A stretch of DNA of 36,909 bases from an uncultured Nitrospiraceae bacterium (GCA_947085305.1 CAMTVV010000132.1:1-36909); one strand, 5' to 3'; numbered from the stretch's first letter, positions 12,605 through 32,553 are shown. Notes: generated from the sequence alone by a model not told the origin. Program-made: numbers and translations.

Positions 12605-12649
12605 CTTCTTGCAAGAGCCTCTTTAGCATTTCGATATTAGGGTTTGTTC

Positions 12650-14170: not shown

Positions 14171-14222
14171 TAATGGCGCCTCCTGTCGATCACGAAGTTT
14201 AAGCCTTCACTAAAAAATCCTT

Positions 14223-16139: not shown

Positions 16140-16158
16140 ACTCGCTCCATTTCCCCGG

Positions 16159-16281: not shown

Positions 16282-16293
16282 TTGATTTATCCA

Positions 16294-16596: not shown

Positions 16597-16597
16597 C

Positions 16598-17110: not shown

Positions 17111-17654
17111 TCTGTTTCCCCCTGAAAACCGCCTGGTTCCTGGGAAAACCGAAGTCATCGGCCGTAGGGTGCCAGAACTTCTTGAAGTACTCCATATTCT
17201 TATCCCACCCCATATAGTTGTCCCAGTTGGCAAGCAGCTTCTCCTTGGTCATGTAGAACGCCTCCCTGGAATAATCCGAATATTCATAGTGTTCGGTGAG
17301 GACGACCGCAGCATACGGGCAGGCCTCCACACAAAGTCCGCAGAAAACACACCTGAGCGCTTCTATTTCATACCGTTCCACGATCTTTTTGTGGTCGAGA
17401 CTGTCCGCAGTGTAAATATAAATACATTTTGAGGGGCATATGGCCGCGCAGAGGCCGCATCCCACGCATCGCGCCTCTCCGGTCTGCTGATCCCTCACAA
17501 GACCGTGGAGCCCCCTGAATCCGGGCATCGCAGGCCTTTTCTCCTTTGGATACTGCCGCGTCACAGGGCGGGTGAACATGGTTTTCAGAGTCAGGGCCAT
17601 GCCCTGGGCGATCTCTGTGAGGAACACCGTTTTTACAAGATTCTTCAATGTCAT
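17100..17654 (-). CDS. nuoI: NADH-quinone oxidoreductase subunit I (2x[4Fe-4S])
   Basis: Two motifs: CVGCGLCAAICP and CVFCGLCVEACP. It has a 4-nt overlap with nuoH. Confidence 0.93.
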   Translation of the reverse strand: MTLKNLVKTVFLTEIAQGMALTLKTMFTRPVTRQYPKEKRPAMPGFRGLHGLVRDQQTGEARCVGCGLCAAICPSKCIYIYTADSLDHKKIVERYEIEALRCVFCGLCVEACPYAAVVLTEHYEYSDYSREAFYMTKEKLLANWDNYMGWDKNMEYFKKFWHPTADDFGFPRNQAVFRGKQNAR

Positions 17655-18649
17655 GGCAACACCTTCGTAATCTTCAAGATTCCGGTAAGCACTATGTTAA
17701 ACAATGCGAGGGGGATCAGCACCTTCCATCCCAGGCTCATGAGATGGTCATAGCGGTATCTCGGCAGCGTGGCTCTTACCCAGTAATAGATGAAAATGAG
17801 GACATAGAGCTTTAAGAAAAACCAGGCAAAGGGCACATAGGGTATCGTAAACGGACCGTTCCATCCGCCGAGGAAGCATACGGTCCCGATGGAGGCCATG
17901 ATAATCATTCCGGTGTACTCTGCAACAAAGAAGAGTCCATACCTCATTCCGCTATACTCCACAAAGTACCCCGCCACCAGCTCGCTCTCGGCCTCGGGCA
18001 GGTCAAAGGGCGCCCTGTTGGTTTCTGCGATGGCGGCAATAACAAAGACCGAACAGCCGATAATCTGAGGAATCAGAAACATGCCGAAGGGATATCGTTC
18101 CTGCGCCCGGACGATATCAGAGAGATTCAGCGAACCCGCAAGCATCATCACTCCCACGAGGCTGAGTCCCAGGGCGATTTCATAGCTTATCACCTGAGCG
18201 GCAGACCGCAAGCCGCCGAGGAAAGAATATTTTGAGTTCGACGCCCATCCCGCCAGGATGATTCCGTAGGAACCGAGGGCTGACATGGCAAGGACAAAGA
18301 GCAATCCCACGTTTATATCGGCAATGGCGAATCCGTCAAAGAAGGGGATTACTGCAAGGGATGAAAGGGCCCCCACAAGAGAAATCACGGGAGCAACAAA
18401 GAATACCGGTTTATCAGACTGGGCAGGGATGATGTCTTCCTTGAAGAACAACTTGATGCCGTCTGCAATGGGCTGGAGAAGCCCGTGGGGTCCGACATTC
18501 ATGGGGCCGAGCCTCACCTGCATATGCCCTATGGTTTTCCTTTCAAAGTAAGTCGCATAGGCAACGTGCAGCATCACCGCTCCAAACACGATGAGTATCT
18601 TCGCCAGTATAATTGCAAGGTATAAAAGGGTATCTATTACGCCCGGCAT
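17651..18649 (-). CDS. nuoH: NADH-quinone oxidoreductase subunit H
   Basis: NuoH/ND1 blocks (ERKxxGHMQxRxGP, AETNRAPFDLPEAESELVAG). Confidence 0.93.
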   Translation of the reverse strand: MPGVIDTLLYLAIILAKILIVFGAVMLHVAYATYFERKTIGHMQVRLGPMNVGPHGLLQPIADGIKLFFKEDIIPAQSDKPVFFVAPVISLVGALSSLAVIPFFDGFAIADINVGLLFVLAMSALGSYGIILAGWASNSKYSFLGGLRSAAQVISYEIALGLSLVGVMMLAGSLNLSDIVRAQERYPFGMFLIPQIIGCSVFVIAAIAETNRAPFDLPEAESELVAGYFVEYSGMRYGLFFVAEYTGMIIMASIGTVCFLGGWNGPFTIPYVPFAWFFLKLYVLIFIYYWVRATLPRYRYDHLMSLGWKVLIPLALFNIVLTGILKITKVLP

Positions 18650-18754
18650 GCTAACCTCTCAGCCTCGTCTGCTTCGCCGTTAATAAAACAAGAGCGGCAA
18701 CCGTTTTGTCAAGTGCGCGAGAACAATCCCGGACCCTCGCTCTCCGGTTCCGTA

Positions 18755-19210
18755 TCATCTGCTCTTCCTGAACATAAGGTGCATAAGGTCTATGTACTGA
18801 CTGTTCATATTTCTGACAATGGACGCCAGATGTATGGCAAGCCGCCGTAATATCTTGCCCGCGACAAGCGGATTGGACATGAGGAGCCCGTCAAAGTCCG
18901 CTTTCCTCAACACCGTCAACCGCGTCTGCTGGTCGGAAACAATAGTCGCATCATGAGCGCTGCCGTCAAGAAAGGACATTATCCCGAATATATCCCCCTC
19001 CTTCAGGGTTGCTATGCAGAACTGATCGCCTTCCACCATCATCTTGTTTATCTTCACTTTCCCCTTCCCGATGATATTCAGGCTGTCGCCCCTTTCTCCC
19101 TCTTTGTAAATAATCTCATTCGGCTCATAATCCCTGGACTGCAATAGATCATGGATGATGTCCATCTCCGAGCCGTCAAGCTCCCGGAAAATGTGACTTT
19201 CCCCGGTCAC
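18755..19210 (-). CDS. Stand-alone cyclic-nucleotide-binding (CNB/CAP-effector) fold protein, no DNA-binding domain
   Basis: CNB beta-barrel pattern (YEPNEIIYKEGERGDSLNIIGKGKVKI ... LKEGDIFGIMSFLDGSAHDATIVS). The start is uncertain. GTG at 19210 has GAGGA 7 nt upstream. Alternatives are GTG 19249 or ATG 19345, both overlapping nuoD. Confidence 0.7.
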   Translation of the reverse strand: MTGESHIFRELDGSEMDIIHDLLQSRDYEPNEIIYKEGERGDSLNIIGKGKVKINKMMVEGDQFCIATLKEGDIFGIMSFLDGSAHDATIVSDQQTRLTVLRKADFDGLLMSNPLVAGKILRRLAIHLASIVRNMNSQYIDLMHLMFRKSR

Positions 19211-19238
19211 ACCCGCATCCTCACTCTTATTTCCCGGT

Positions 19239-20441
19239 TTATCTGTCACACTCGCCAAGCACAATGTCGACAGTCCCGATGTTTGCGATGACATCAGCGA
19301 TAAGGGAGCCCTCGCACAGCCTCGGTATGACCGACGCATGGACAAATGATGGCGCCCTCACCCTCATCCGGTAAGGTCTGCCTGTTCCGTCGCTCACAAA
19401 ATAAAACCCCAGCTCGCCCTTCGGCGCTTCCACTGCCGAATATATCTCGCCCTCCGGAGCAGCCATGGGACCCTTGGTAATAAGGACAAAGTGATGGATC
19501 ATGGCTTCCATGCTGCTGAGTACCGTGTTCTTGGGTGGGAGGGTTAGTTTCGGCGCGTCAGGGGCCATGACAGGGCCCGCAGGAAGCCGCTCGATACACT
19601 GCCGTATAATCCTGTTGGACTGCCTGAATTCCTCCATCCTGCAACGATACCGGTCGTACACATCCCCGGCCTTCCCCAAAGGAACGTCGAATTCCACTTT
19701 ATCATATGCGTCATAGGGGGCATGCTTCCTCACATCATACGCTACGCCCGAACCCCTCAGGGTAGGACCCGTGAGTCCCCAGTTCACTGCCTCGTCTGCT
19801 TCAATCACGCCGATGCCCTTTGTCCTCTTGAGCCATATCCGGTTCTGGTCTATGAGCGTCTCATACTCCTCAACCCTCCCCGGGAATTCGTCGGTGAATT
19901 TATAGAGGCTGTCGATGAATTCCTGTGACACGTCGTTCCTGACCCCTCCGATCCTTGCATAACTTGTGGTAAGTCTCGCCCCGCAGAGCATCTCAAAGAG
20001 ATCCAGAAGCCATTCCCTCTCCCTGAAGGAGTAAAGAAACACGGTCATTGCCCCGATGTCCAGGGCATGGGTGCCGAGCCACAGGATATGGCTGCTTATC
20101 CTCGACATCTCCGAAACCATGGTCCTGATATACTTTGCCCTTTCAGGAGCCTCTATTCCGAACAGCCGCTCCACCGCGAGACAGTACCCCTGGTTGTTCA
20201 CCATAGCGGAGATATAGTCAAGCCTGTCGGTGAGGGGAAGGGCGGTGAGGTATGTCCTGTTTTCTCCGAGCTTTTCAACGCCCCGGTGAAGATACCCTAT
20301 ATGGGGAGTGCACTTCACCACGGTTTCGCCGTCCAGTGCAAGGACAAGCCTGAGCACCCCGTGGGTCGCCGGATGCTGCGGCCCCATATTTATGGTCAGC
20401 TCTTTCGTCTGTAATTCAGCGGCGCCCTTATCCGTTATCAT
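19239..20441 (-). CDS. nuoD: NADH-quinone oxidoreductase subunit D
   Basis: NuoD signature ([26 protein letters not shown]-terminal DIVLGECDR). No NiFe-hydrogenase CxxC pairs. Confidence 0.95.
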
Positions 20442-20986
20442 CTTATTTCATACGCCTTGTTTCTCTCCGACAGCTCAAGGATTTCCTTCAGCCCGGGCCA
20501 TTCCTTCTCACCGAGATCACTCTCCAGCGGATAGTCTTTTCTCAGGGGATACCCTTCCCAGTCCTCGGGCATCAATATCCGCAGGAGATCAGGGTGTCCC
20601 TTGAACCGTATCCCGAACATGTCGTAGCACTCCCGTTCATGCCAGTTCGCTCCATCCCAGATGCTCACCACGCTGTCGATCTCGGGGTCATCCTCAGGGA
20701 CTTCAGCCCTGATCCTTATCGTATGCCTGTGGCTGATGGAATAAAGCTGATACACCACCTCGAACCTCGGCTCCTTCTTTCCGAGGTAATCGACACCGCA
20801 AAGGTCTCTCAGATAGCTGAAACAGAGCTCGGGGGTGTCGTGCAGGTATTCCATTATCTCCTTCAGCCTGTCTTTTTGTATAACTACGGATACCTGCCCG
20901 CGGAATTCCCTTATCTCTTTCACTTCAGAGGGAAAACGTTCCCGCATTCCCTCTGCGATCGTCTGTGATATCAATGTCGGTTCCAT
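20438..20986 (-). CDS. nuoC: NADH-quinone oxidoreductase subunit C
   Basis: NuoC motif ([24 protein letters not shown]). ATGA overlap with nuoD. Confidence 0.92.
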
Positions 20987-20996
20987 CTCTTCTCCA

Positions 20997-21060
20997 TTTA
21001 TGATTTCAGATTTATGACTGCTGATTTAAAAATCTGAAATCTGAAATCTACAATCATAAA
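20997..21060. repeat. Long imperfect hairpin built from ATCTGAA/TTCAGAT heptads, filling the nuoB-nuoC spacer
   Basis: The arms at 20997-21027 and 21030-21060 are largely complementary: TTTATGATT...AGATTT pairs with AAATCT...AATCATAAA. It abuts the nuoC RBS. Confidence 0.6.
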
Positions 21061-21067
21061 TCCCTTA

Positions 21068-21589
21068 CTATCTCCACATGCTCCACTTGAAATGCTCTTT
21101 TTTTATCTTCTCCTGAAGCTTGATGATCCCTTCCATAAGGGCTTCAGGCCTTGGCGGACAGCCGGGAATGTACACGTCCACGGGAAGAAAGGTATCAACG
21201 CCCTGGACCGTGCTGTAGGTATTATAGATCCCTCCCGAACATGCGCAGCTTCCCATGGCCATCACATATCTCGGCTCGGGCATCTGGTCGTAGACCCTCC
21301 GTATGACCGGAACCATCTTCTTCGACACCGTGCCGGCGATGATCACCACGTCCGACTGTCTCGGCGAGCCCCTGAAGATAATCCCGAACCGGTCAAGGTC
21401 ATAGTGCGCCGAGCCTGTAGTCATCATTTCTATGGCGCAGCATGCCAGACCAAAGGCCATGGGCCAGAGGGAAGAAACCCTCCCCCAGTTCACGAGCTTG
21501 TCAATGCTCGTGATGATAGTGTTGGCTCCGGGGATTATCTTTACCCTTTCTTCCACTTCGACAAGCGCGGTTGTGCTCTCTTTTATCAT
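21068..21589 (-). CDS. nuoB: NADH-quinone oxidoreductase subunit B
   Basis: N2-cluster motifs ([26 protein letters not shown]). The start is set at MIKEST (GAGGG upstream). The ORF's first ATG at 21616 lies inside a heptad repeat array. Confidence 0.9.
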
Positions 21590-21610
21590 AATGCCCTCGC
21601 TTTCGCTATA

Positions 21611-21675
21611 GCTCATTGCTCATAGCTGATAGCTCATAGTTTCTTGCCATGAGCGATGAACCATGAACTATGAGC
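21611..21675. repeat. Inverted arrays of GCTCATA-type heptads (4 direct, 8-nt spacer, 4 inverted) in the nuoA-nuoB spacer
   Basis: GCTCATT GCTCATA GCTGATA GCTCATA ... CATGAGC GATGAAC CATGAAC TATGAGC. 21 of 28 arm positions are complementary. Confidence 0.7.
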
Positions 21676-21679
21676 TTTC

Positions 21680-22051
21680 TTAGTCCCACCGGAATGCTTC
21701 CTTTTTCCATGCGTACACATAGCCCACCACAAGAATGGCGATAAAGAGCATCATTGACACAAATGCATAGAGTCCGATCTCATCGAATACAATCGCCCAG
21801 GGATACAGGAATACCGCCTCAACGTCAAATATCACAAAGAGCATGGCGACGATATAAAACCTTACGGAAAAACGGTATCGCGGCTCTCCCACGGGGGGAT
21901 TTCCGGACTCGTAGGGAAGGAGTTTTTCCCGGTATGGTCTCCTCAGCCTGAGGACAATGCCCACTGCAAGCGTGCCGAGACCAAACGCCAGCACAACCAC
22001 CATAAAGATGACTATCGGCAAATACTCTTCTGGTAAGAATGCAGTCGGCAT
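21680..22051 (-). CDS. nuoA: NADH-quinone oxidoreductase subunit A
   Basis: NuoA pattern (YESG..P.G, FSVRFYIVAMLFVIFDVEAVFLYPWA). The start is taken at MPTAFLPEEY. The upstream extension to 22165 has no homology and crosses the divergent promoter region. Confidence 0.9.
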   Translation of the reverse strand: MPTAFLPEEYLPIVIFMVVVLAFGLGTLAVGIVLRLRRPYREKLLPYESGNPPVGEPRYRFSVRFYIVAMLFVIFDVEAVFLYPWAIVFDEIGLYAFVSMMLFIAILVVGYVYAWKKEAFRWD

Positions 22052-22149
22052 AAAACGAACTATTTTATACCTAAAATCATAATGAGAGTCAAGCAAAAAA
22101 TCTAATCCTGCAATTTTAGGCACCCAGGCCGATATTTTTTTTAGATTTT

Positions 22150-22158
22150 TGATAAAAT
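22150..22158 (+). promoter_or_regulatory. Extended -10 element (TGATAAAAT) positioned for a leaderless histidine-kinase mRNA
   Basis: TGnTAAAAT ends 6 nt before the ATG at 22165. There is no Shine-Dalgarno. It lies in the AT-rich 113-bp divergent region shared with nuoA. Confidence 0.3.
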
Positions 22159-22164
22159 TGTGCA

Positions 22165-23769
22165 ATGGCCAGAAAATCTTTGAACTCCCTTGCCGGCAAG
22201 CTCATCATCGCAGTGGGCGCCCTCATAACCTTCGGCAGTCTCCTCTTCGGCTTCACCTTCATGCGCTATGAGGAGCGTATCATGATGAACAACCTGATAA
22301 GTTATGCCGCCTCCACGGCAGACCTTGTGAAAAGAGGGATCTATTACTCCATGATGACCGCCCATCGTGAGGCCATTGAGCAGACCGTGGAGGTCATCGG
22401 ATCCGGAGCCGACATCAAGGACATTTCGATCTTGGACAAACGAGGCAAGATTGTGTACTCTTCACAGAAATCCGAGATGGGCCGCTCCGTTGACAAAGGC
22501 GCACCAATCTGCCAGACCTGCCACAAAGACAACGGGGCGCCCCTTGCGGCCCCGGAACCAAGAAACTGGGCCATCGTATCTGATGCATCTGGAACAAAAA
22601 CCCTCAAGTTCGTCATCCCGATCTACAACGAGCCTTCGTGTTATACCGCATCCTGCCACTATCATCCAAAGGAAAAAAATATCCTCGGGATCCTCGAAAC
22701 GGATTTCAGCACCGCGACGGTCGATACCGTCATACGTAAGCACCGTATCGGCACCATCGCGTTCGGCGGCCTCTTTATTATCATGATATCCTTCTCCCTC
22801 TTCATCATCCTCTACAAGTTTGTCTCGAAGCCGGTTTCTCTGCTGGATGAGGGGATGCAGAAACTGGCGAAGGGGGAGCTGGATCACGTCATCGAGATCC
22901 ATTCCCGGGACGAAATGGGACTTCTTGCCGACACCTTCAATGCCATGGCCGGCGATATCAGGCGGTATAAAGACAATATGGAGAACTGGACCAAGGCGCT
23001 GGAAGAGGAGATCCAGAAAAAGACCTCGGAGATCATGAAGGCTCATGACCAGATCATCAATGCAGAGAAGCTCGCTTCCCTGGGCAGGATGGCTGCGGGA
23101 GTTGCCCACGAATTGAACAGCCCCCTTACAGGAATCGTCACCTTTTCCCACCTCATGCTGAAGCGGATGCCTCCTGAGAACAAACAGGATATCGAGGACC
23201 TGGAGGTGATCATAGAACAGACGGAGCGGTGTTCCAAAATCATCAAGGGCCTCCTCGGGTTCTCCCGCAAAACCTCTGCGGAAAAGGTCTTTGTAAACAT
23301 CAACACATTGACGGAGAACACCATCTCCATGGTGAGAAACCAGGCAAAGTTTCATAATATTAAATTCGCGCTGAATTTTGACAATTCCCTCCCCCAGATA
23401 TCCATCGACCCCAACCAGCTGCAGCAGGTCTTTATCAACCTTCTCATCAATGCAGCCGATGCCATGAACGAAAGGGGGCAGGTTACTGTCGCGACCCGGG
23501 TAAGCCTTGACACGGCAAGCGGAAGAAAATTTGTGGAGATTGAGTTCACCGATACGGGACCGGGCATCCCTGAAGAGCACCTCGGCAGGGTGTTTGAACC
23601 GTTTTTTACCACGAAGCCGGTGGGCAAAGGAACAGGGCTGGGGCTTGCGGTGAGTTACGGAATAATCAAGAAACACGGCGGAAATATTTTTGTCAGGAGC
23701 GAACTGGGCAGGGGCGCGAGTTTCTTCGTGAGACTGCCGGCGGAAAACACTGTGGTTGCAGAGTCTTAG
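22165..23769 (+). CDS. Sensor histidine kinase: TM, about 160-aa extracytoplasmic domain with CxxCH and Cx4CH, TM, HAMP, HisKA, HATPase_c
   Basis: TM1 spans residues 9-33 and TM2 about 195-217. HAMP is present. H-box AAGVAHELNSPLTGI, N-box NLLINAADAM, G1 DTGPGI, G2 GTGLGL. Cys motifs ICQTCH (22510-22524) and SCYTASCHYH (22639-22659). Confidence 0.9.
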   Translation: MARKSLNSLAGKLIIAVGALITFGSLLFGFTFMRYEERIMMNNLISYAASTADLVKRGIYYSMMTAHREAIEQTVEVIGSGADIKDISILDKRGKIVYSSQKSEMGRSVDKGAPICQTCHKDNGAPLAAPEPRNWAIVSDASGTKTLKFVIPIYNEPSCYTASCHYHPKEKNILGILETDFSTATVDTVIRKHRIGTIAFGGLFIIMISFSLFIILYKFVSKPVSLLDEGMQKLAKGELDHVIEIHSRDEMGLLADTFNAMAGDIRRYKDNMENWTKALEEEIQKKTSEIMKAHDQIINAEKLASLGRMAAGVAHELNSPLTGIVTFSHLMLKRMPPENKQDIEDLEVIIEQTERCSKIIKGLLGFSRKTSAEKVFVNINTLTENTISMVRNQAKFHNIKFALNFDNSLPQISIDPNQLQQVFINLLINAADAMNERGQVTVATRVSLDTASGRKFVEIEFTDTGPGIPEEHLGRVFEPFFTTKPVGKGTGLGLAVSYGIIKKHGGNIFVRSELGRGASFFVRLPAENTVVAES

Positions 23770-23806: not shown

Positions 23807-24166
23807 ATGACCCTCGGAAAAGTGATAGAGGTGCTGGAGGGAGAGGTGGCGCTGAACACAGGGGACATGGAGATCGAAATCCTCTCTGTCTGCAGCTCTG
23901 ACCTTATGAGCGATCTTCTGCATTTTTCGAGCAAGCCCAGGTCGCTGCTTATTACCGGGCTGAACAACACCCAGGTGGTGCGAACGGCAGAGATCGCCGA
24001 CATCAAGGCAGTGGTCTTTGTCCTTGACAAGAGGCCTGACCGGGAGACCGTGGAGATGGCCCGGCAGAAAGGCATCACCCTGATCGTCACAAGACTCTCG
24101 CGGTTCACCGCCTGCGGGAGGTTATACGCTGAGGGCCTTGTAAGCTGCACAGGGGAAAACCGGTAA
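23807..24166 (+). CDS. DRTGG domain protein
   Basis: DRTGG-type pattern (DLMSDLL...SLLITGLNNTQVVRTAEIADIKAVVFV). The start is at MTLGKV after GAAGGTGA. It has a TAATG overlap with the next gene. Confidence 0.8.
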   Translation: MTLGKVIEVLEGEVALNTGDMEIEILSVCSSDLMSDLLHFSSKPRSLLITGLNNTQVVRTAEIADIKAVVFVLDKRPDRETVEMARQKGITLIVTRLSRFTACGRLYAEGLVSCTGENR

Positions 24167-24609
24167 TGGCTGATAAGAACATAGAGGGGAGTTTTCATCT
24201 CACCGGCGGAGATTTTACCAATGCAGGCGCAGCCTCCAGTGAGCTGAAATCAATCATGACCAAGCTCAACATCAGCCCTCATCTTGTGAGGAGGGCTGCC
24301 ATCGCAACCTTTGAGGCGGAGATGAACGTGATCATTCATGCCGTTGCCGGGGTGATGTACTACCTGATTACCCCGGACTCCATCAAGGTCGTTCTCAACG
24401 ACATGGGCCCCGGCATCCCTGATATTCAACAGGCGATGCGTGAAGGGTACTCCACAGCGCCGGACTGGATTCGGGAGATGGGATGGGGCGCGGGGATGGG
24501 ACTGCCGAACATGAAAAAAAACTCCGATGAGTTCAGGATAGATTCGGTTGTCGGTGAGGGAACAACCGTCGAGATAATCATAAAGATCAAGGAGGACAAA
24601 ACACCGTGA
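24166..24609 (+). CDS. RsbW/SpoIIAB-like Ser/Thr protein kinase (GHKL ATPase, anti-sigma regulatory factor family)
   Basis: N-box EAEMNVIIHA, G1 DMGPGIPD, G2 GAGMGLPN, about 147 aa, no HisKA domain. Confidence 0.8.
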   Translation: MADKNIEGSFHLTGGDFTNAGAASSELKSIMTKLNISPHLVRRAAIATFEAEMNVIIHAVAGVMYYLITPDSIKVVLNDMGPGIPDIQQAMREGYSTAPDWIREMGWGAGMGLPNMKKNSDEFRIDSVVGEGTTVEIIIKIKEDKTP

Positions 24610-24941
24610 ATATTCGAGAGGTTATGGACTTGTTAGCATCGGACGTAAAAACGACAAAAGGGGATCTCGGGCGTGCCGTCACCGGGTGCTATATCAGCGA
24701 CCTTCTCTCGGACGTCATAGCGAATGCCAAAGATGGAGAGGTGTGGATTACCCTCCAGACACATCCCAACATCGTTGCAGTGGCTTCCCTTAAGAATCTT
24801 GCCGGCATCATCATAACAAATAAAAGGACTCCCGAGGAGGAGACCCTGAAAAAGGCGGAGGACGAACATATCACTGTTGCGGTAAGCCCGCTGACCACCT
24901 TTGAGGCTGGAGGTTTGCTTTATAAGCTGCTCCGATGCTGA
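24606..24941 (+). CDS. DRTGG domain protein (second copy)
   Basis: GTG start overlapping the preceding stop (GTGA). DLLSDVI...VWITLQTHPNIVAVASLKNLAGIIIT pattern. Confidence 0.75.
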   Translation: MNIREVMDLLASDVKTTKGDLGRAVTGCYISDLLSDVIANAKDGEVWITLQTHPNIVAVASLKNLAGIIITNKRTPEEETLKKAEDEHITVAVSPLTTFEAGGLLYKLLRC

Positions 24942-25678
24942 GACCCTTCCTTGCCGACCTGCATATGCACACGTGCCTTTCTCCTTGCGCTGAAATCGAC
25001 ATGACCCCCAGGGAGATCGTGACCGCATCTCTGGAAAGGAGACTGAACCTCATCGCCATAACAGACCATAACTCCGCAGAGAACGTTGAGGCCGCACAGA
25101 AGGCGGCGGAAGGGACAGGTCTTGTAGTCCTGGCGGGGATGGAGGTCGCCTCCTCCGAGGAAGTGCATATCCTCGCGCTCTTTGAGAGCCCTGATGATGC
25201 AAAGGCATTACAGGACATTGTCCAGGAGAACCTGCCCTCCGGAGAAAACGATGAACGATTGTACGGGCGACAGATCATTGTAAATGAGAAAAACGAAGTC
25301 ATGGGATTTAACCGGAGGCTGCTGATCGCAGCGACAAATCTTACCGCGCATACCCTCCTGGATTTCATCAAATCTCTGGGCGGCATCTCCATTGCAAGCC
25401 ATGTGGACCGTGAAGCCTTCAGTGTTGTCTCTCAGCTTGGTTTCATCCCCGAAGATCTTTGCTTTGATGCCCTCGAGCTCTCTCCGCGTATCAGCAGGAA
25501 TGAAGCGGAAACCGCCTTTCAGGGGCTGAAGAGTTTTCCCTGGGTTTCTTTTTCCGACGCCCATTACGTGAAAGACATCGGCAGAAGGATCACAACGTTT
25601 ACCATGAGGGAACCATCCCTGCACGAGATGCGTCAGGCGTTCAAGAATGTGGATGGCCGCACGCTCTCCTGGGATTGA
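24935..25678 (+). CDS. PHP (polymerase/histidinol phosphatase) domain metal-dependent phosphoesterase
   Basis: ADLHMHTCLSPCAE and AITDHNS motifs, and a later HxD/H-rich set (IASHVDRE, FSDAH). It overlaps the upstream gene by 7 nt. Confidence 0.85.
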   Translation: MLRPFLADLHMHTCLSPCAEIDMTPREIVTASLERRLNLIAITDHNSAENVEAAQKAAEGTGLVVLAGMEVASSEEVHILALFESPDDAKALQDIVQENLPSGENDERLYGRQIIVNEKNEVMGFNRRLLIAATNLTAHTLLDFIKSLGGISIASHVDREAFSVVSQLGFIPEDLCFDALELSPRISRNEAETAFQGLKSFPWVSFSDAHYVKDIGRRITTFTMREPSLHEMRQAFKNVDGRTLSWD

Positions 25679-25682
25679 CGGA

Positions 25683-26216
25683 ATGGAAGACTTATCCCTG
25701 CATATCCTCGATATTGCGGAAAACTCAGTTGCTGCCGGGGCAGACAGGGTTGAGATCACCGTGGATGAAGATACAAAAAACGATCTCCTCACCCTCGAGA
25801 TAAGGGACAATGGAAGGGGGATGGATAAAGAGACAATACAGAAGGTGACCGATCCTTTTTTCACCACCAGGACTGTAAGAAGGGTTGGCCTTGGCTTGCC
25901 GTTCCTCAAGCAGGCAGCGGAAGAATGTGAGGGGCGCTTTTCCATGGCATCGGAAAAGGGAAAGGGCGCCATTGTCTCGGTGAGTTTCAGGAGCAGCCAC
26001 ATAGACAGAAAACCCCTTGGCGACATCGGAGCCACCATTATGGTGCTGCTAGCGGGTAACCCAGGGGTTGATGTTCTCTTCACCTATAAAAAAGATGGCT
26101 ACACGTACTGGATGGACACCCGGGTGATCAGGAAAGAGCTGGAAGAGGTCCCGATAAATTCACCGGAAGTGTTGAAGCTCATACGGAAAGATATTGACAG
26201 GGGGCTGAAAGGATGA
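25683..26216 (+). CDS. Orphan GHKL/HATPase_c ATP-binding protein (no HisKA, no sensor domain)
   Basis: N-box HILDIAENSVAAGA, G1 DNGRGM, G2 GLGLPF. The start is at MEDLSLH, 4 nt after the PHP stop. Confidence 0.8.
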   Translation: MEDLSLHILDIAENSVAAGADRVEITVDEDTKNDLLTLEIRDNGRGMDKETIQKVTDPFFTTRTVRRVGLGLPFLKQAAEECEGRFSMASEKGKGAIVSVSFRSSHIDRKPLGDIGATIMVLLAGNPGVDVLFTYKKDGYTYWMDTRVIRKELEEVPINSPEVLKLIRKDIDRGLKG

Positions 26217-26335: not shown

Positions 26336-26713
26336 ATGAGCAAAACGAAGATCCTTGTGATCGATGACGAAGAGATCGTACGAATTAGTTGCAGGAAATG
26401 TTTAGCGCCTGAAGGATATGAGGTGGACGTCGCCGCAAATGGCGCCGACGGGCTGAGGCTGACCCGGGAAAAACATTATGCCCTCATTCTCACGGACCTG
26501 AAGATGCCCGATATGGACGGCATGGAATTCCTCATGACCATGAAGGAGATGCAGCCTGAAGCAAAGGTGATCATGATAACCGGGTATAGCACCGTGGAGC
26601 ATGCTGAAGAGGCGACGCGCCTGGGGGCGTACAACTATATCGAAAAACCCTTCACGCCGGATACCCTCATCGCTGCGGTGAGAGAGGCGCTCCATGACAT
26701 AAAGAAAACATAA
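26336..26713 (+). CDS. Stand-alone response-regulator receiver (CheY-like)
   Basis: LVIDDEE, LILTDLKMPDMDG, IMITGY and EKPF. All phospho-acceptor pocket residues are present. GGGAGG RBS. Confidence 0.9.
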   Translation: MSKTKILVIDDEEIVRISCRKCLAPEGYEVDVAANGADGLRLTREKHYALILTDLKMPDMDGMEFLMTMKEMQPEAKVIMITGYSTVEHAEEATRLGAYNYIEKPFTPDTLIAAVREALHDIKKT

Positions 26714-26850: not shown

Positions 26851-27714
26851 ATGGCAGGCAGAATACTCGTTGTGGACGATGAACCTGTTGTTGTCAAGAG
26901 CTGTGAACGCATCCTGACTCCGGAAGGGTATGCTGTTGAAAGCGCGTTAAACGGCGTTGAAGCCATTGCCAAACTCGGCGGGGACAGCTTTGATCTTGTG
27001 ATTACCGACCTGAAGATGCCTGATATCGACGGTCTCGAACTTATCCGGTGGATAAGGAATTCCAGGCCTGACACAGGTATCGTGGTCATCACCGGCTTCC
27101 CATCCCAGGAAAGTATCAAAGAAGCCCTCAGCTTAAGGATCCTTGATTATCTTCCCAAGCCTTTTTCCCCTGCCCTCCTTATCGAGATCACCCAGAGAGC
27201 CCTGGAATACAAAAAAGCGGGACGGGCCGCCGAGACTCCCCCGACCGAAGAGTATACTGAGGAGATGGCGAGAGAACTCGATTCCATTATAAAGAAATAC
27301 AGGAAAAAGCCGGGCAGTCTCATCCCCGTGCTTCAGGAGGCCCAGGAGATCATCGGCTTCCTGCCTCCTTCCGTGCAGAGACATATAGCGAAGGGACTGA
27401 AACTTCCGGTGAGCGAAGTGCATGGGGTTGTGTCGTTCTACTCCTTCTTCACCATGAAGCCGAAGGGAAAACACAATATCCGCGTTTGCCTCGGAACGGC
27501 GTGCTATGTAAAGGGTGCTGAGGAGATCGTGAAGAAATTAAGTGAAGGGCTTGCCATCAGTGTGGGGGGAATCACCGAAGACAAGAAGTTCTCCCTCGAA
27601 ACTGTGCGGTGCCTCGGCGCATGCGGATTGGCGCCGGTGGTTGTTGTGGACAAGGATTATCATGGCTCTCTGAACGCAGTCAACGCGCATGAATTGCTGA
27701 AAGACTATGAATAG
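26851..27714 (+). CDS. Receiver domain fused to NuoE/HydC-type thioredoxin-like [2Fe-2S] subunit
   Basis: Residues 1-120 are a receiver (LVVDDEP, LVITDLKMPDIDG, VVITGF, PKPF). Residues about 135-287 are NuoE-like (IPVLQEAQEIIGFLP, VCLGTAC = Cx4C, RCLGAC = Cx3C). Confidence 0.9.
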   Translation: MAGRILVVDDEPVVVKSCERILTPEGYAVESALNGVEAIAKLGGDSFDLVITDLKMPDIDGLELIRWIRNSRPDTGIVVITGFPSQESIKEALSLRILDYLPKPFSPALLIEITQRALEYKKAGRAAETPPTEEYTEEMARELDSIIKKYRKKPGSLIPVLQEAQEIIGFLPPSVQRHIAKGLKLPVSEVHGVVSFYSFFTMKPKGKHNIRVCLGTACYVKGAEEIVKKLSEGLAISVGGITEDKKFSLETVRCLGACGLAPVVVVDKDYHGSLNAVNAHELLKDYE

Positions 27715-27723
27715 GAGGCAGAT

Positions 27724-28107
27724 ATGGGCAGATTGACCATAGAAGATCTTAAGAGAATCAAGGAGGACCACAAGGCAATGCTCACCCTGAGAGAGGGCGG
27801 CTACCGGGCAAAGGTCACGGTCCACATGGGAACCTGCGGCATCGCTGCGGGGGCAAGGAAGGTGATGGAGGCATTGCTTGATGAGATAAACACAAATAAG
27901 GTGGTGGATGTGATCGCGACTACTTCGGGATGCGCCGGGCTCTGCAGCAAGGAACCCATGGCCACTGTCGATATTATCAATGAAGCCCCTGTAAAATATG
28001 TGGAGCTCAATGAAGAAAAGATTCGGAAAATATTCACAGAACATGTTCTGAACGGCCGGATTGTTCAGGACTCTGCCCTTGTCATGGGCAGTGAAACAGC
28101 ATATTAA
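27724..28107 (+). CDS. Small thioredoxin-like [2Fe-2S] ferredoxin (HydD/HndB-like)
   Basis: VTVHMGTCGIAAGA and TSGCAGLCSKEP. The whole protein has only three Cys. Confidence 0.8.
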   Translation: MGRLTIEDLKRIKEDHKAMLTLREGGYRAKVTVHMGTCGIAAGARKVMEALLDEINTNKVVDVIATTSGCAGLCSKEPMATVDIINEAPVKYVELNEEKIRKIFTEHVLNGRIVQDSALVMGSETAY

Positions 28108-28189: not shown

Positions 28190-30073
28190 ATGGAACAGTA
28201 CCGCGCCAGTGTCATGTTGTGTGGAGGCACCGGCTGTATCGCCGGCGGCAGTCTGAAGCTCAAGAACGCTCTTGATGAAGAGCTTAAGAATAGAGGTCTC
28301 GACAATGAGATAAACGTAGTTCTCACAGGCTGTAACGGCTTCTGCGCAGAGGGTCCTGTTATGACGGTCTATCCGGAAGATATCTTTTACGAAAAGGTTA
28401 CAGTCAAAGATGTTCCCCTTATCGTGGAGGAACATTTCATAAAGGGAAGGCCTGTGGAACGGCTTATGTACAAGGAGCCGGTGAAGAAGCAGATCATCCC
28501 GTTAATGAAGGATATTCCGTTCTTCAGCCTTCAGGTTCTCAGGGCATTGAGGAACAAAGGACTTGTGGATGCGGAGAAGATAGAGGACTACATTGCCCGG
28601 GACGGGTATCAGGCAGCGGCAAAGGCCCTGACCGAGATGACCCCGGAACAGGTGATCGACGAGTTGAAGAGATCCGGGCTCCGGGGAAGGGGAGGCGCAG
28701 GCTTCCCTACAGGGTTGAAGTGGGAGTTGTGTGCAAAGGTGAAGGGAGACCAGAAATTTATCCTCTGCAATGGTGATGAAGGAGACCCGGGCGCATTCAT
28801 GGACAGAAGCATCATGGAGGCGGACCCCCACGTTGTTCTTGAGGGAATGATCATCGGCGCAAAGGCCATCGCAGCGAATAAAGGATATATTTATGTGAGG
28901 GCTGAGTATCCCCTTGCCGTTCACCGTCTGCAGCTCGCCATAGACCAGGCAAAAGAATACGGTCTCCTGGGCGACAACATCCTGGGCGCTGGTTTCAATC
29001 TCGATATCGAGATCTATCTGGGCGCGGGCGCGTTTGTCTGCGGTGAGGAAACAGCGCTGATGCGGTCCATCGAGGGGAAACGGGGAATGCCGAGACCGAG
29101 GCCGCCCTTCCCTGCCCAGAAGGGACTCTGGGACAAGCCTTCAGTCCTGAACAACGTCGAAACCTATGCAAATATCCCCCAAATAATACTGAACGGCGCT
29201 GACTGGTACAGAAGCCTCGGAACAGAAAAATCCACCGGCACAAAGGTCTTTGCCCTGAGCGGCGCCATCAACAACATCGGATTGATCGAGGTGCCCATGG
29301 GCATCCCTCTCAGAAAGATCATTTATGACATCGGGGGCGGAATCCCTAACAAGAGGAAATTCAAGGCTGTCCAGTTGGGAGGACCTTCCGGAGGCTGCAT
29401 TCCCGAGCATCTCCTTGATACCCCGGTGACCTATGAAGATATTGTCCAGACAGGCGCAATTGTGGGCTCCGGCGGAATGGTCGTTATGAATGACCTGAAC
29501 TGCATGGTGAGTGTCGCAAAATTCTTCCTTGAGTTCACTGCCGAGGAATCATGCGGCAAATGCCCTCCCTGCAGGATCGGCACCACGGTGATGCTTGATC
29601 TCCTCACGAAGATAACTGAGGGAAAGGGAAACGAGGGCGATATTGAACTCCTCGGGGATATGTCTCTCGACATAATCGCCACTTCCCTCTGCGGCCTTGG
29701 GCAGACCGCGCCCAACCCTGTCCTGACAACGATAAAATATTTCAGGGATGAGTATGAGTCCCACATTAATGAAAAATGGTGCAAGACCGGTGTCTGCAAG
29801 GACCTCTGCACATTCTATATCGATGAAGAGAAGTGCAAGGCGTGCGGGCAGTGCAAGAAGGTATGTCCCCAGAGTGCGATTTCCGGGGAGAAGAAGGTGC
29901 CTCACCGTATCGATCAGCCCCTCTGCATCCAGTGCAGGTCATGCTACGAGGTCTGCAAGTTCGATTCGGTGAAGATCGGTCCCCTGAGCATGCGTGAGAC
30001 CCTCAGGAACCTCCCTGACCAGGAGGCGCTGAGTAACAAGCAGGTCGAGGCGCTTGCGGGAAAGGAGGAATAA
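28190..30073 (+). CDS. NuoF-like NADH/FMN subunit of the HydB/HndC type (extra N-terminal 2Fe-2S and C-terminal 2x[4Fe-4S] domains)
   Basis: N-terminal LCGGTGC...GCNGFC. FMN/NADH motifs GRGGAGFPTGLKW and GDEGDPGAF. N3-type ESCGKCPPCR...SLCGLG. C-terminal CKACGQCKKVCP and CIQCRSCYEVC. Confidence 0.92.
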   Translation: MEQYRASVMLCGGTGCIAGGSLKLKNALDEELKNRGLDNEINVVLTGCNGFCAEGPVMTVYPEDIFYEKVTVKDVPLIVEEHFIKGRPVERLMYKEPVKKQIIPLMKDIPFFSLQVLRALRNKGLVDAEKIEDYIARDGYQAAAKALTEMTPEQVIDELKRSGLRGRGGAGFPTGLKWELCAKVKGDQKFILCNGDEGDPGAFMDRSIMEADPHVVLEGMIIGAKAIAANKGYIYVRAEYPLAVHRLQLAIDQAKEYGLLGDNILGAGFNLDIEIYLGAGAFVCGEETALMRSIEGKRGMPRPRPPFPAQKGLWDKPSVLNNVETYANIPQIILNGADWYRSLGTEKSTGTKVFALSGAINNIGLIEVPMGIPLRKIIYDIGGGIPNKRKFKAVQLGGPSGGCIPEHLLDTPVTYEDIVQTGAIVGSGGMVVMNDLNCMVSVAKFFLEFTAEESCGKCPPCRIGTTVMLDLLTKITEGKGNEGDIELLGDMSLDIIATSLCGLGQTAPNPVLTTIKYFRDEYESHINEKWCKTGVCKDLCTFYIDEEKCKACGQCKKVCPQSAISGEKKVPHRIDQPLCIQCRSCYEVCKFDSVKIGPLSMRETLRNLPDQEALSNKQVEALAGKEE

Positions 30074-30078
30074 GAAAA

Positions 30079-32553
30079 ATGATAGAACTTAAGATAAATG
30101 GAAAAACAGTAAAGGTTGAAGCGGGAAGCACAATCCTCCAGGCTGCCAGGGAAAGCGACATCTATATTCCGAACCTCTGTTATGACAAGAGGCTCAGACC
30201 TTATGGCGGCTGCAGGCTTTGCATCGTGGAAGTGGAAGGACAGAAAAGGCTTTTTGCCGCCTGTTCCACCCCTGCCGAGAACGGCATGATAGTGCAAACG
30301 GAAACACCGAAACTTCATAAGGCGAGGAAGACCGTTCTCGAATTCCTGCTCATACACCACCCCCTCGACTGTCCGATCTGCGACAAGGCCGGGGAATGTC
30401 AGCTCCAGGACCTTGCATTCAAATACGGGCCTTCAGAGTCAAGGTTTGTCGGAGAGAGAAAACACGAGCCTGAAAGCATTGCCGCACCCCTTGTGGAAAG
30501 AAACCCTAACAGGTGTATCCTTTGCGGCAAGTGCGTAAGGGTTTGCTACGATCATCAGGGCGTCGGCGCCATAAACCTTCTCGGCAGGGGCTTCAAATCG
30601 AAGATAAGTCCCGCCTTTGAGGAAACCCTTGACTGCGAATTCTGCGGCCAGTGCATCGACGCATGCCCCGTGGGCGCTCTGGGAAGCAAACCCTATCGGT
30701 TCAGGTCAAGGGTATGGTTCCTCGATGAAAAGGCAATCGCCTGCCCGTACTGCGGCTGCGGCTGCACTACAAACCTCGGCCTTAGGGACGGCAGGATTGT
30801 ACGGGCAAGAGGGAAACAGGGTATCGGAATAAACGATGGAGACCTCTGCAGCAGGGGCAGGTTCGGGTTCGATTACATCTATTCCGAAAACAGATTGACC
30901 ACTCCCATGATCAGAAAGAACGGAACTCTGGTTAAGGCAACCTGGGAAGAGGTGCTTGAGTATATCGCAAAGAGCCTCCAGTCCATAAAAGAGAAATACG
31001 GCCCCTCGGGCATCGGCGCCATAGGCTCACAGAGGTGCACCATGGAAGACAATTACATGCTGCAGCGCTTCATGAGGGAGGTCATCGGAACAGATAACAT
31101 CGATTCAGCAGCCCGGTTCGGGTATGCAAAGGCACAAAAGGCAATGGAAATGGCCTTTGGTATTGACTTCCACCCGATCCGGTGGGATGCTCCGCTGAAC
31201 GCTGACTTTATCCTGGTAGTGGAATCAGATATCACTTCCACCCTGCCTGTGTGGGGGCTTAATTTTATCAAGGCGAGGAACAATGGCGCCCAGCTTGTTG
31301 TTGCAGACCCGAAGGAGACAAAGCTTGCGCGGAACAGCTCCTCATGGCTCCAGATTAAACCCGGCTCGGGCATCGCACTTCTCAACGGCATTGCAAAGGT
31401 GATCCTTGACGAAAAACTTTACGACCTGGATGAAGAAGTCCTCATGGAGGACAAAGACCTTACCATACCGAATTATGAAGCCCTGGTGAAGAGCCTTGCA
31501 GACTTTACGCCCCCGGCTGTTGCCGAACTCACCGGCCTTTCCGAAGAAGAGATCGTTCATCTGGCGAGGTCATATTCAGCTGCAAAGAACAGGCTCTTAA
31601 CCCTGACGTCAGGGGCCTCTGAAAATACAAAGGGGATGAACACCCTTCTTGCTGCAGCAAATCTTGTCCTGCTCATGGGGGATGCACCTGAGACCCTCCA
31701 GATACCTGCCGAGTATTCCAATACCCTCGGCATGTGGAAGGTCGGCGTGAGACCCCTCTCCGGAGGGAAGGACGCCCATGAAATGCTGTACCAGCCCGGC
31801 GCGGTAAAGGCCCTTTATATGATGGGAGAAAACCCCCTGGTCACCTTCAAGAATGTCTCGGCCGTAGAAAAGTCGCTGAAGGGACTTGAGTTCCTCGTGG
31901 TGCAGGATATAATCCTCACCGATACCGCAAAACTTGCCGATGTGGTCCTCCCGGCCAGCAGCTGGGGAGAAAAAGACGGCATCTTTATGTCTTCCACCGG
32001 CAATGTCCTGGAGGTCCCCAAACTCCTGCCGGAAACCGGGCAGTCAGTGCCTGACTGGAAGATATTCAGGAACCTGGCAAGGATGATGAACAGGGACCTG
32101 GGAGAAAAAGATCTTTCTGAAATCAGGGAAGCAATTATGGATCTCGTTGCAGCGGGCCCGGCAGGGGAAGAGGTTCTCTCCTTCAATCCTGTGGAGCAAA
32201 AGATCTCGGAGAAGCCGGACGAAGAGTATCCTCTTCTTCTCATCACTTCGGACCTGTTGCAGCACTCAGGCGCCCTGTCGGTTCTTTCGAAGAACCTCGG
32301 CTCGGTCGTCTCCGATGCGTACCTGCAGATAAACCCTGCTGATGCAAAGAAATACAGGATACATGATGATGGGTACGTGAAGGTAAGGTCCAGAAGGGGA
32401 GAAGTATATCTGAAGGCGATGATCTCGGATGAAATGCCTGAAGGCGCGGTATTTGCGCCGGCGCATTTCCCCCACGCCAACGTAAATGCGTTGACGCACC
32501 CTTCCCTGAACGGTGAATCGCCTGTAGACGCGGTAAAGGTTGAATTGGCATGA
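30079..32553 (+). CDS. NuoG-like Fe-S subunit with a molybdopterin-oxidoreductase fold that lacks formate-dehydrogenase catalytic residues
   Basis: N-terminal 2Fe-2S (CYDKRL..CRLC..C). His-ligated cluster HHPLDCPICDKAGEC. CILCGKCVRVC and CEFCGQCIDACP. CPYCGCGC cluster. Mo-bisPGD-like domains. Where FdhF has CARV-U-HGP, this protein has AARFGYAKA (31114-31125). Confidence 0.85.
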   Translation: MIELKINGKTVKVEAGSTILQAARESDIYIPNLCYDKRLRPYGGCRLCIVEVEGQKRLFAACSTPAENGMIVQTETPKLHKARKTVLEFLLIHHPLDCPICDKAGECQLQDLAFKYGPSESRFVGERKHEPESIAAPLVERNPNRCILCGKCVRVCYDHQGVGAINLLGRGFKSKISPAFEETLDCEFCGQCIDACPVGALGSKPYRFRSRVWFLDEKAIACPYCGCGCTTNLGLRDGRIVRARGKQGIGINDGDLCSRGRFGFDYIYSENRLTTPMIRKNGTLVKATWEEVLEYIAKSLQSIKEKYGPSGIGAIGSQRCTMEDNYMLQRFMREVIGTDNIDSAARFGYAKAQKAMEMAFGIDFHPIRWDAPLNADFILVVESDITSTLPVWGLNFIKARNNGAQLVVADPKETKLARNSSSWLQIKPGSGIALLNGIAKVILDEKLYDLDEEVLMEDKDLTIPNYEALVKSLADFTPPAVAELTGLSEEEIVHLARSYSAAKNRLLTLTSGASENTKGMNTLLAAANLVLLMGDAPETLQIPAEYSNTLGMWKVGVRPLSGGKDAHEMLYQPGAVKALYMMGENPLVTFKNVSAVEKSLKGLEFLVVQDIILTDTAKLADVVLPASSWGEKDGIFMSSTGNVLEVPKLLPETGQSVPDWKIFRNLARMMNRDLGEKDLSEIREAIMDLVAAGPAGEEVLSFNPVEQKISEKPDEEYPLLLITSDLLQHSGALSVLSKNLGSVVSDAYLQINPADAKKYRIHDDGYVKVRSRRGEVYLKAMISDEMPEGAVFAPAHFPHANVNALTHPSLNGESPVDAVKVELA

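Follow-up and report, generated by a model that had tools for sequence, protein, structure and literature searches.

The stretch of DNA considered here, 36,909 nucleotides (nt) from an uncultured Nitrospiraceae bacterium (GCA_947085305.1 CAMTVV010000132.1:1-36909; hereafter the window), carries at 23807-26216 five consecutive genes that we treat as a cassette. The predicted products are two DRTGG-domain proteins (DR1 and DR3, from genes g1 and g3), a small kinase resembling SpoIIAB and RsbW (K2, from g2), a PHP-domain protein (from g4) and a second GHKL-type ATPase (A5, from g5), and downstream lie the genes of a NuoEFG-like oxidoreductase module. Related cassettes accompany NuoE/NuoF-type enzymes across many phyla, and we tentatively regard the window's copy as the minimal, sensor-less form of a signalling cassette dedicated to such enzymes.

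The first gene, g1 (23807-24166; 119 amino acids (aa)), runs from ATG to TAA and shares one nucleotide with g2 (24166-24609; 147 aa) in the string TAATG. The third, g3 (24606-24941; 111 aa), starts with GTG inside a 4-nt overlap (GTGA); g4 (24935-25678; 247 aa) overlaps g3 by 7 nt; and g5 (25683-26216; 177 aa) follows after a gap of 4 nt (cgga). All five lie on the plus strand, and the successive junctions, read from the sequence and computed, are -1, -4, -7 and +4 nt, in agreement with a preliminary description of this DNA, which had called the genes translationally coupled. Shine-Dalgarno-like strings precede g1 (gaaggtga) and g3 (aaggagga). For g5 the longest open reading frame, called mechanically, opens at 25647, and the near-invariant Met of the orthologue alignments falls at 25683. 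A scan for promoters and terminators gave no excess over shuffle expectation, and no plus-strand terminator-like site was seen within the block. That the five genes form one operon is well supported. The same description went on to state that the five proteins are, almost certainly, made stoichiometrically; the operon stands, but equimolar synthesis is an over-reading, because tight junctions are frequent in the window (nuoI/H and nuoD/C at -4, NuoF/NuoG at +5, receiver-NuoE/ferredoxin at +9) and because the block is interrupted or rearranged in relatives. In one Nitrospirota relative (locus L001), g3 and g4 are separated by four genes on the opposite strand, and in many loci a NuoE gene lies between the PHP and ATPase genes. 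The four intervening genes of L001 (6055-9785) are those of a histidine kinase and an OmpR-type regulator, a gene of unknown type and a DUF5666 gene.

DR1 matches Pfam DRTGG (PF07085) at 26.9 bits against a cut-off of 25.2, and DR3, at 23.6 bits, falls below that cut-off. A profile-profile comparison of the two families with hhalign gives a probability of 99.9% (E = 2.4e-32 over 117 columns), and on this profile evidence DR3 is a DRTGG paralogue of DR1. DR1 carries the cassette-specific motif D32-L-M-S35-D together with T50-G51 and K75 (conservation in 69 and 46 orthologues), and DR3 has D32-L-L-S35-D, W47, T49, H53 and N55. D32 and S35 (D-L-[ML]-S-D) are invariant in both paralogues; T50-G51 is invariant in DR1, with T49 in the matching column of DR3. 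AF1212, whose DRTGG structure is solved (2IOJ), has Met and Gln at the D32 and S35 columns and Leu at the column of DR1 K75, so that T-G alone is common to both.

A structural view of the first two proteins is provided by a Thermosediminibacteraceae homologue in which DRTGG and kinase form one chain (equivalent to g1 + g2). Its AlphaFold2 model has a pLDDT (predicted local distance difference test) of 90.8 and a pTM (predicted template modelling score) of 0.76, with a low-confidence linker. The N-terminal half superposes on AF1212 at a template modelling (TM) score of 0.80 and also on the DRTGG domain of the CBS-pyrophosphatase (3L2B/3L31 are among the matches); the fold matches listed for the model include no STAS chain. 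Ser36 of the model, equivalent to S35, sits at the N-terminus of a helix following a beta-strand, a predicted position that suits either a phospho-acceptor or a phosphate/ligand site.

K2 matches HATPase_c_2 (PF13581) at 30.4 bits (cut-off 27.4). Its best NCBIfam model is spIIAB, the anti-sigma F factor (E = 5.7e-15), at 55 bits against an equivalog cut-off of 135, and SpoIIAB is likewise the best match when its sequence is compared with solved structures. The ATP-binding boxes are intact (E50, N54, D79xG81xG83 and G106-G112). The catalytic Glu50 and Mg-binding Asn54 align with E46 and N50 of SpoIIAB, and conservation of the G1 (D79xG81xG83) and G2 boxes is 90% or more. The kinase half of the fusion model can be superposed on SpoIIAB with a TM score of 0.84 and a root-mean-square deviation of 2.1 Å; RsbW superposes too, and PDK and BCKDK are among the fold matches. 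By sequence and modelled fold, K2 is a GHKL Ser/Thr kinase of the SpoIIAB/RsbW/RsbT type, and the RsbW-like identity first proposed for it is upheld on both counts.

The g4 product matches Pfam PHP (PF02811) at 37.5 bits, with a weak additional match to PHP_C. Its family, with members of about 245 aa, is sharply delimited (447 clusters at 50% identity, E <= 1e-30) and has the signature LH[IVM]H[TS]xLSPC, in which S-P-C follows the H-x-H motif in place of the usual S-D-G. Cys18 (codon 24986-24988) is invariant; it may bind metal in an unusual way or respond to redox state. The expected metal-binding positions, H10, H12, D44-H45, E70/E75, H78, H156 and D208-x-H210, show conservation of at least 90%. 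The nearest family models are those of TrlF, RNase RNM, pAp phosphatase, Ppl and EndoQ family PHP domains; all match far below their cut-offs and therefore say little about the substrate. The CpsB/YwqE-type protein-tyrosine-phosphatase PHP model was not among the Pfam or NCBIfam matches of g4.

A5 scores 61.2 bits against HATPase_c and gave no match to a HisKA/DHp domain. The boxes N14, D42xG44xG46, D57-P-F and G69-L-G71 are conserved (ATP-binding residues at 90% or more), the best match is the catalytic and ATP-binding (CA) domain of KinB (3D36), and the family comprises at least 7973 clusters (90% identity) of about 180 aa. In an AlphaFold2 model (pLDDT 89.6, pTM 0.85), residues 1-103 form a CA domain of the histidine kinase type, followed by a loop with the invariant residues His106 (25998-26000), Asp108 and Pro111 and then by a small alpha/beta C-terminal subdomain. 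Foldseek matches to histidine kinase CA domains cover about 103 columns of A5, and those to MutL, PMS2, MLH1 and TopoVI-B extend over 175-215 columns (TMq 0.5-0.61). We considered whether A5 might be a histidine kinase in circular permutation, as SHIDRKPLGD resembles the HisKA H-box SHELRTPL; the idea was dropped because H106 lies in a loop, next to an alpha/beta subdomain, and not in a DHp hairpin. The usual place of the A5 gene is between hydC and hydD, and in some cases it is fused to PHP; A5 is thus a conserved cassette member and not the orphan for which it had been taken.

To follow the cassette beyond the window, the PHP protein was used as marker in a scan of one genome per species. 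Since 594 of 600 matches were confirmed, the marker occurs in at least 594 species genomes, which belong to more than 12 phyla. Eighty loci were kept for mapping of the window's proteins, 48 of them having 8 kb or more of sequence to either side of the PHP gene. The 80 loci come from Chloroflexota, Bacteroidota, Bacillota, Thermodesulfobacteriota, Nitrospirota, Acidobacteriota, Aminicenantes, Zixibacteria, Cloacimonadota, Planctomycetota, Armatimonadota, Bipolaricaulota, Spirochaetota and others, and share the recurring order DR1-K2-(X)-DR3-PHP-(NuoE)-A5-small ferredoxin-NuoF-terminal subunit. Among the 48 loci with full flanks, 46 have DR1 (plus one in fused form), 46 have K2, 46 have DR3 and 45 have A5; all five genes are present in 42 of the 48, and a NuoF-like gene lies within 10 kb in 45. 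The terminal subunit varies between the hydrogenase subunit HydA, molybdopterin formate dehydrogenase (FDH)-like proteins, GltD-like flavoproteins (some fused to NuoF) and NuoG-like proteins, and the cassette tracks the NuoE/NuoF core whichever of these is present. It is almost certain that this is a conserved cassette tied to NuoEF enzymes, which also fits the earlier proposal of a NuoEF(G) module as its target.

Three variants of the cassette can be distinguished by their putative sensors. In the first (variant A, about 32 loci), a separate gene for a protein of about 450 aa is placed between K2 and DR3; this protein combines two Fer4 motifs with an Fe_hyd_lg_C domain of weaker score and, at its C-terminus, a PF04060 Fe-S motif, which is the architecture of TamHydS and other group D (M2e) putative sensory [FeFe] hydrogenases (PMC8163306). 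In variant B (about 24 loci), the additional gene is absent, and K2 is lengthened to 305-340 aa by an N-terminal CBS pair. Variant C, represented by the window and about 11 further loci, mostly from Nitrospirota and Syntrophales-type organisms, has neither HydS nor CBS pair. There is no sensor gene between K2 and DR3 in the window because the two genes overlap by 4 nt and leave no room for one, an absence of the usual group D HydS or CBS pair that had gone unnoticed in the preliminary description. HydA terminal subunits are found in 13 loci, all with the HydS-type cassette, and in 0 CBS-type loci; the sensor therefore matches the enzyme, while the five-gene core stays constant with NuoE/NuoF. 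The FDH-like terminal subunits of four loci (L013 at 14093-16783, L032, L074 and L076) are split at an in-frame stop, as for selenocysteine, and the cassette therefore also accompanies NuoEF-linked selenocysteine FDHs.

Gene fusions and partial cassettes suggest how the five proteins are grouped. A domain-level check of the loci left one true in-frame DRTGG-K2 fusion (L004), and a search with it retrieved at least 120 clusters of proteins built in the same way, about 270 aa in length and belonging to Thermosediminibacter, Tepidanaerobacter, Caldanaerovirga, Thermovenabulum and other Thermoanaerobacterales, annotated at source as 'anti-sigma regulatory factor' or 'RsbT'. Recurrence on this scale supports a physical partnership of DRTGG with the kinase, which had been proposed from the window alone. 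Apparent fusions of DR1 to K2 (L024) and of DR3 to PHP (L066) were rejected as upstream extensions of the open reading frame in another frame. PHP and A5 are fused in three PHP representatives of 395-431 aa (P0143, P0168 and P0189), and three partial cassettes (L059, L077 and L082) keep DR3-PHP(-A5) without K2. Because the DRTGG-K2 and PHP-A5 fusions recur and the partial cassettes lack K2, the data suggest a cassette of two arms, [DR1 + K2] and [DR3 + PHP + A5]. A Thermosediminibacter isolate (L084) has the DRTGG-kinase fusion followed by HydS, DR3, PHP, HydC, A5, HydD, HydB, HydA and rnfC. In this isolate a gene for a Rex-type repressor (8372-9004; Put_DNA-bind_N + CoA_binding) shares 4 nt with the beginning of the fusion gene, and transcription may therefore be handled separately.

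The names of homologues place the source of the window in Nitrospirota/Thermodesulfovibrionia. In the window, the cassette is surrounded by other signalling genes. Upstream, a membrane histidine kinase (22165-23769, plus strand; HAMP-HisKA-HATPase_c in Pfam) ends 37 nt 5′ of g1. Its two transmembrane segments, the hydrophobic stretches at about aa 9-34 and 195-222, enclose a loop of about 160 aa with the motifs CQTCH (CXXCH) and CYTASCH (CX4CH), encoded at 22510-22524 and 22639-22659, and there is a weak match to Mcp40H-20_sensor. These features suggest a periplasmic redox sensor with c-type haem, and the kinase is a likely input for the receiver domains encoded downstream. These are a stand-alone receiver protein (26336-26713, plus strand; Response_reg, 111.8 bits) and a fusion of a receiver to a NuoE/HydC-type [2Fe-2S] protein (26851-27714, plus strand; Response_reg 100.5 bits and 2Fe-2S_thioredx 170.7 bits). 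A histidine kinase of the same type precedes the cassette in two other loci (L001 and L030), with a receiver gene after it in both. The receiver-NuoE fusion recurs among the fetched loci in L001 only (12268-13137, with its duplicate contig L002). Histidine kinase, receiver protein and receiver-NuoE fusion, which the preliminary description had missed, thus belong to the cassette neighbourhood in Nitrospirota. Candidate fusions in L026 and L043 were rejected; the long NuoE there bears a Fer4/FAD-like extension and no receiver domain. L001 has in addition a receiver-GCV_H (lipoyl/H-protein-like) fusion (11381-12145) ahead of its receiver-NuoE gene. Further receiver genes in the window are those of a zinc-ribbon + receiver protein at 33247-34143, which overlaps the end of a rhomboid protease gene, and of a LuxR-type response regulator at 340-972.

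The remainder of the NuoEFG-like module follows on the plus strand. A small thioredoxin-like [2Fe-2S] ferredoxin, HydD/HndB-like (27724-28107; weak matches to 2Fe-2S_thioredx and to clostridial 2Fe-2S ferredoxin), precedes NuoF, as in most loci. The NuoF/HydB-type flavoprotein (28190-30073; Complex1_51K, NADH_4Fe-4S, Fer4 and 2Fe-2S_thioredx) has an extra N-terminal [2Fe-2S] domain and C-terminal 2x[4Fe-4S] domains, as in HydB/HndC. The terminal subunit (30079-32553; 824 aa) has a molybdopterin fold resembling NuoG and FDH-alpha; it scores 457.6 bits against TIGR01973 NuoG, where the cut-off is 470, has no match to Fe_hyd_lg_C, and among solved structures its sequence is closest to FdsA-type FDH alpha. 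An assignment as FDH was rejected: the U140-H141 pair (Sec-His) of FdhH aligns with Gly-Tyr (about 31090-31125) in place of the Sec/Cys-His pair, and because of this replacement the subunit is not taken for a catalytic FDH. It is probably NuoG-like and non-catalytic. On the minus strand, divergent from the cassette, 11080-22165 holds an 11-subunit nuo operon (A, B, C, D, H, I, J, K?, L, M, N) with no nuoEFG, a layout also seen in L001. It may be that the plus-strand module is a separately regulated electron-input module of the divergent nuo complex. Between nuoD and nuoH, on the minus strand (18755-19345), is a gene for a cyclic-nucleotide-binding domain (PF00027, 70 bits).

The closest known relative of the block is the gene set around group D HydS. 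In a 2012 comparison, group D M2e hydrogenases were listed upstream of bifurcating hydrogenases as TTE0887, Cthe_0335, Athe_1292, Csac_1857, Teth39_1463 and Cphy_3798. The order DRTGG-kinase-group D HydS-DRTGG-PHP-HydC-ATPase-HydD-HydB-HydA found here matches the published gene numbers (PMC3561251, PMC4694547). The proteins and their order are the same in TTE0887 with TTE0890-0894 and in Cthe_0335 with Cthe_0340-0342 (PMC3561251, PMC4694547); what these sets share with the window is the run DRTGG, RsbW-like kinase, DRTGG, PHP, NuoE/HydC, an ATPase of about 180 aa (Tte0891, which occupies the position of A5; PMC4694547), small ferredoxin and NuoF/HydB. The sets lie upstream of trimeric or tetrameric bifurcating hydrogenases in Thermoanaerobacterales and Clostridia. 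The link to NuoEF-type [FeFe]-hydrogenase operons of Thermoanaerobacter-like Firmicutes, to which the preliminary description had pointed, is real, both in many of our loci and in the Thermosediminibacter isolate. The window differs in that it lacks a sensory hydrogenase, has a NuoG-like terminal subunit rather than HydA, adds the haem-motif histidine kinase, the receiver protein and the receiver-NuoE fusion, and places its cassette divergent from an 11-subunit nuo operon. The block is therefore a member of the functionally unexplored group D HydS gene set, as a sensor-less and hydrogenase-less variant. Published accounts name the cassette neighbours in passing, as 'a histidine/serine kinase' or 'histidine kinase-like ATPase'. 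Our literature search found no account of the five-gene cassette, of a DRTGG or PHP role or of the fusions: DRTGG together with hydrogenase gave unrelated work only, PHP domain with histidine kinase-like ATPase and hydrogenase gave nothing, and Bfu with histidine kinase gave nothing on the cassette.

Resemblance to partner switching was the starting point of the preliminary description. As in RsbW-RsbV-RsbU/P and SpoIIAB-SpoIIAA-SpoIIE, a small GHKL kinase is encoded beside small alpha/beta proteins and a metal-dependent phosphoesterase; in contrast to those modules, the block has no STAS antagonist, no PP2C and no nearby sigma factor, and has two DRTGG paralogues along with a further ATPase. 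Neither in the cassette, as had first been stated, nor among the other window proteins scanned was a STAS or PP2C domain found, and none of the five cassette protein families has a Pfam match to a DNA-binding or sigma-factor domain. The single sigma gene of the window, of the RpoD type, lies about 21 kb off, and no alternative sigma gene adjoins the cassette; nor was such a gene noted in the mapped loci, for which window proteins were the only probes. Because the STAS, PP2C and sigma-factor features were looked for and are absent, the block is not a member of the RsbW/SpoIIAB family, although it may work in a similar way. Three further systems are more distant. The CBS-DRTGG-CBS insert of family II pyrophosphatases (3L2B, 3L31) also joins DRTGG to a CBS pair, comparable to the CBS-kinase encoded beside a DRTGG gene in about 24 loci; here, however, DRTGG is free-standing and carries D-L-x-S-D, the window lacks CBS domains and the partners are a kinase and PHP. 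Group C sensory [FeFe] hydrogenases (Hfs type; TmHydS) also have signalling genes upstream of a bifurcating hydrogenase (PMC3561251, PMC8163306), but their PAS domain, HisKA kinase and PP2C are all missing from the cassette. Finally, mitochondrial PDK and BCKDK are GHKL-fold Ser kinases that switch a redox enzyme complex post-translationally; the similarity is distant, the N-terminal domain is another and the phosphatase partner is of the PP2C type, and the comparison is an analogy only.

Although several scenarios can be drawn from these observations, we think it quite probable that the cassette has a regulatory role. Our tentative first choice, to which we give slightly less than even odds, is that a signalling cassette spread across phyla and devoted to NuoE/NuoF-type (HydBC, 'Bfu'-type) flavin/iron-sulfur oxidoreductases is present in the window in its minimal form, without a sensor. 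A kinase arm (DR1 + K2) would be opposed by a counter-acting arm (DR3 + PHP + A5). K2, using ATP, would phosphorylate a DRTGG partner at the D-L-x-S35-D site or bind it in an ATP-dependent manner, and PHP would undo this action. The state of the DRTGG/kinase complex would then tune the activity or assembly of NuoE-ferredoxin-NuoF-NuoG post-translationally and not via a sigma factor. Post-translational action is inferred because Pfam showed no DNA-binding or sigma-factor domain in the cassette proteins, A5 is encoded within the structural gene run, one isolate has a Rex-type gene upstream and, in the window, a receiver is fused to NuoE. In most organisms the input would be the group D sensory [FeFe] hydrogenase or the CBS pair on the kinase; in the window it would probably come from the neighbouring histidine kinase with its haem motifs and from the receiver domains, of which one is fused to NuoE.

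Several observations weigh against this reading. Phosphotransfer to DRTGG is a proposal, and the DRTGG-kinase fusion would be equally expected if DRTGG were a regulatory or dimerisation domain, as in the CBS-DRTGG pyrophosphatases. The whole-chain fold of A5 is about as much like the MutL/TopoVI-B ATPase switches as like kinases. Tte0891, the counterpart of A5, was not reported to co-purify with HydC-His, HydA, HydB, HydD and HydC being the only components identified in the purified complex (PMC4694547). The sequences nearest to the PHP protein are those of enzymes with nucleotide or nucleic-acid substrates, not of known protein phosphatases, and three of the 48 loci with full flanks have no nearby NuoF-like gene. 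Lastly, a transcriptional output is a further possibility, since some loci have receiver proteins of NtrC size (about 450 aa) and histidine kinases at their flanks. That DRTGG is the phospho-acceptor and PHP its phosphatase is, unlike the regulatory role as such, a doubtful proposition.

The main rival would have K2 act directly on the enzyme. As PDK and BCKDK do, K2 would phosphorylate NuoE, the small ferredoxin or NuoF, with PHP as the phosphatase and the DRTGG proteins as ligand-binding or dimerising subunits of both enzymes rather than substrates. Several features point this way: DRTGG stands N-terminal to K2 in the fusion, exactly where other lineages bear the CBS pair, which recalls the 3L2B/3L31 insert; each DRTGG gene adjoins one enzyme (DR1/K2 and DR3/PHP), and the pairs persist apart; PDK and BCKDK are among the fold matches of the kinase; and the A5 gene is embedded in the structural genes. 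On the other hand, the invariant D32/S35 of both DRTGG proteins, absent from AF1212, fits an acceptor as well as a ligand site, and characterised SpoIIAB/RsbW-type kinases phosphorylate small antagonist proteins. We regard phosphorylation of the enzyme itself as unlikely, if better placed than the remaining alternatives, all of which are less likely.

A different role for PHP would be the hydrolysis of a small nucleotide (e.g., pAp, Ap4A or a cyclic phosphate), for which DRTGG, with or without CBS, would be the receptor, the GHKL proteins serving as ATP-dependent conformational switches. The best family matches of PHP are in keeping with this (RNase RNM, 3′,5′-nucleoside bisphosphate phosphatase, cyclic-phosphate diesterase and TrlF/Ppl/EndoQ-type PHP domains), as are the fusion of CBS pairs, which are sensors of adenine nucleotides, to K2 in about 24 loci and the MutL/TopoVI-B-like whole-chain fold of A5. 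However, the PHP matches all lie far below the family cut-offs, K2 is structurally close to the protein kinases SpoIIAB and RsbW with its catalytic Glu and Asn intact, and the conserved block holds no nucleotide cyclase or synthase; a nucleotide signal is, in our view, improbable.

Far less credible is classical partner switching, in which K2 would be the anti-sigma factor for a sigma factor encoded elsewhere, the DRTGG proteins the anti-anti-sigma factors and transcription of the enzyme operon the output: K2 is indeed SpoIIAB/RsbW-like and its homologues are annotated 'anti-sigma regulatory factor' or 'RsbT', but the RpoD-type gene about 21 kb away is the window's only sigma gene and none of the alternative type was seen beside the cassette, one isolate has the gene of a Rex-type repressor immediately upstream, and A5 is inside the structural gene run. 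It is just as hard to believe that the GHKL ATPases and PHP are not regulators but chaperone-like or cofactor-processing factors that build the FMN/Fe-S NuoEF module, since exchangeable sensors (HydS, CBS) point to signalling and many NuoEF-type enzymes exist without the cassette, even though the tight linkage to NuoE/NuoF whatever the terminal subunit, the place of A5 between structural genes and its MutL-like fold would agree with such a role.

Returning to a signalling cassette dedicated to NuoE/NuoF-type enzymes, a fuller version can be sketched, which we consider unlikely as a whole. The DRTGG paralogues would form a STAS-like phospho-switch, written at Ser35 by the RsbW-type kinase and erased by the Cys-containing PHP, and the MutL/histidine kinase-like ATPase would take part in gating bifurcating NuoEF-type enzymes post-translationally. 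Such a switch would be workable without a hydrogen sensor, and in the window the receiver-NuoE fusion and the periplasmic haem kinase would link it to a NuoEFG-like module, which in turn may serve the neighbouring 11-subunit complex I.

Electron-bifurcating NuoEF/HydBC-type enzymes govern redox balance in many anaerobes. The group D 'sensory' hydrogenases have been the subject of spectroscopic study for years. As of April 2026 their signalling partners were still unidentified, and finding the interaction partners was called the critical next step (PMC13104023). The comparisons made here indicate that the genes around these sensors are one conserved five-protein cassette with exchangeable sensors, namely a hydrogenase, a CBS pair or none, and that the cassette follows the NuoE/NuoF core and not the hydrogenase. 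Its proteins are thus candidate partners for signalling by group D sensory hydrogenases, with the DRTGG-kinase and PHP-ATPase fusions naming the partner pairs.

Finally, we note that the window's copy is a single instance of a common cassette and not a rarity; it is its minimal form, together with the comparisons, that makes the regulation of group D sensory hydrogenases and of NuoEF-type enzymes directly testable. Having neither sensor nor hydrogenase, this copy offers a clean minimal system, and it hints that the electron-input module of a complex I may be controlled by phosphorylation. If the proposal is true, the DRTGG phospho-switch would be a new signalling architecture present in hundreds of species.

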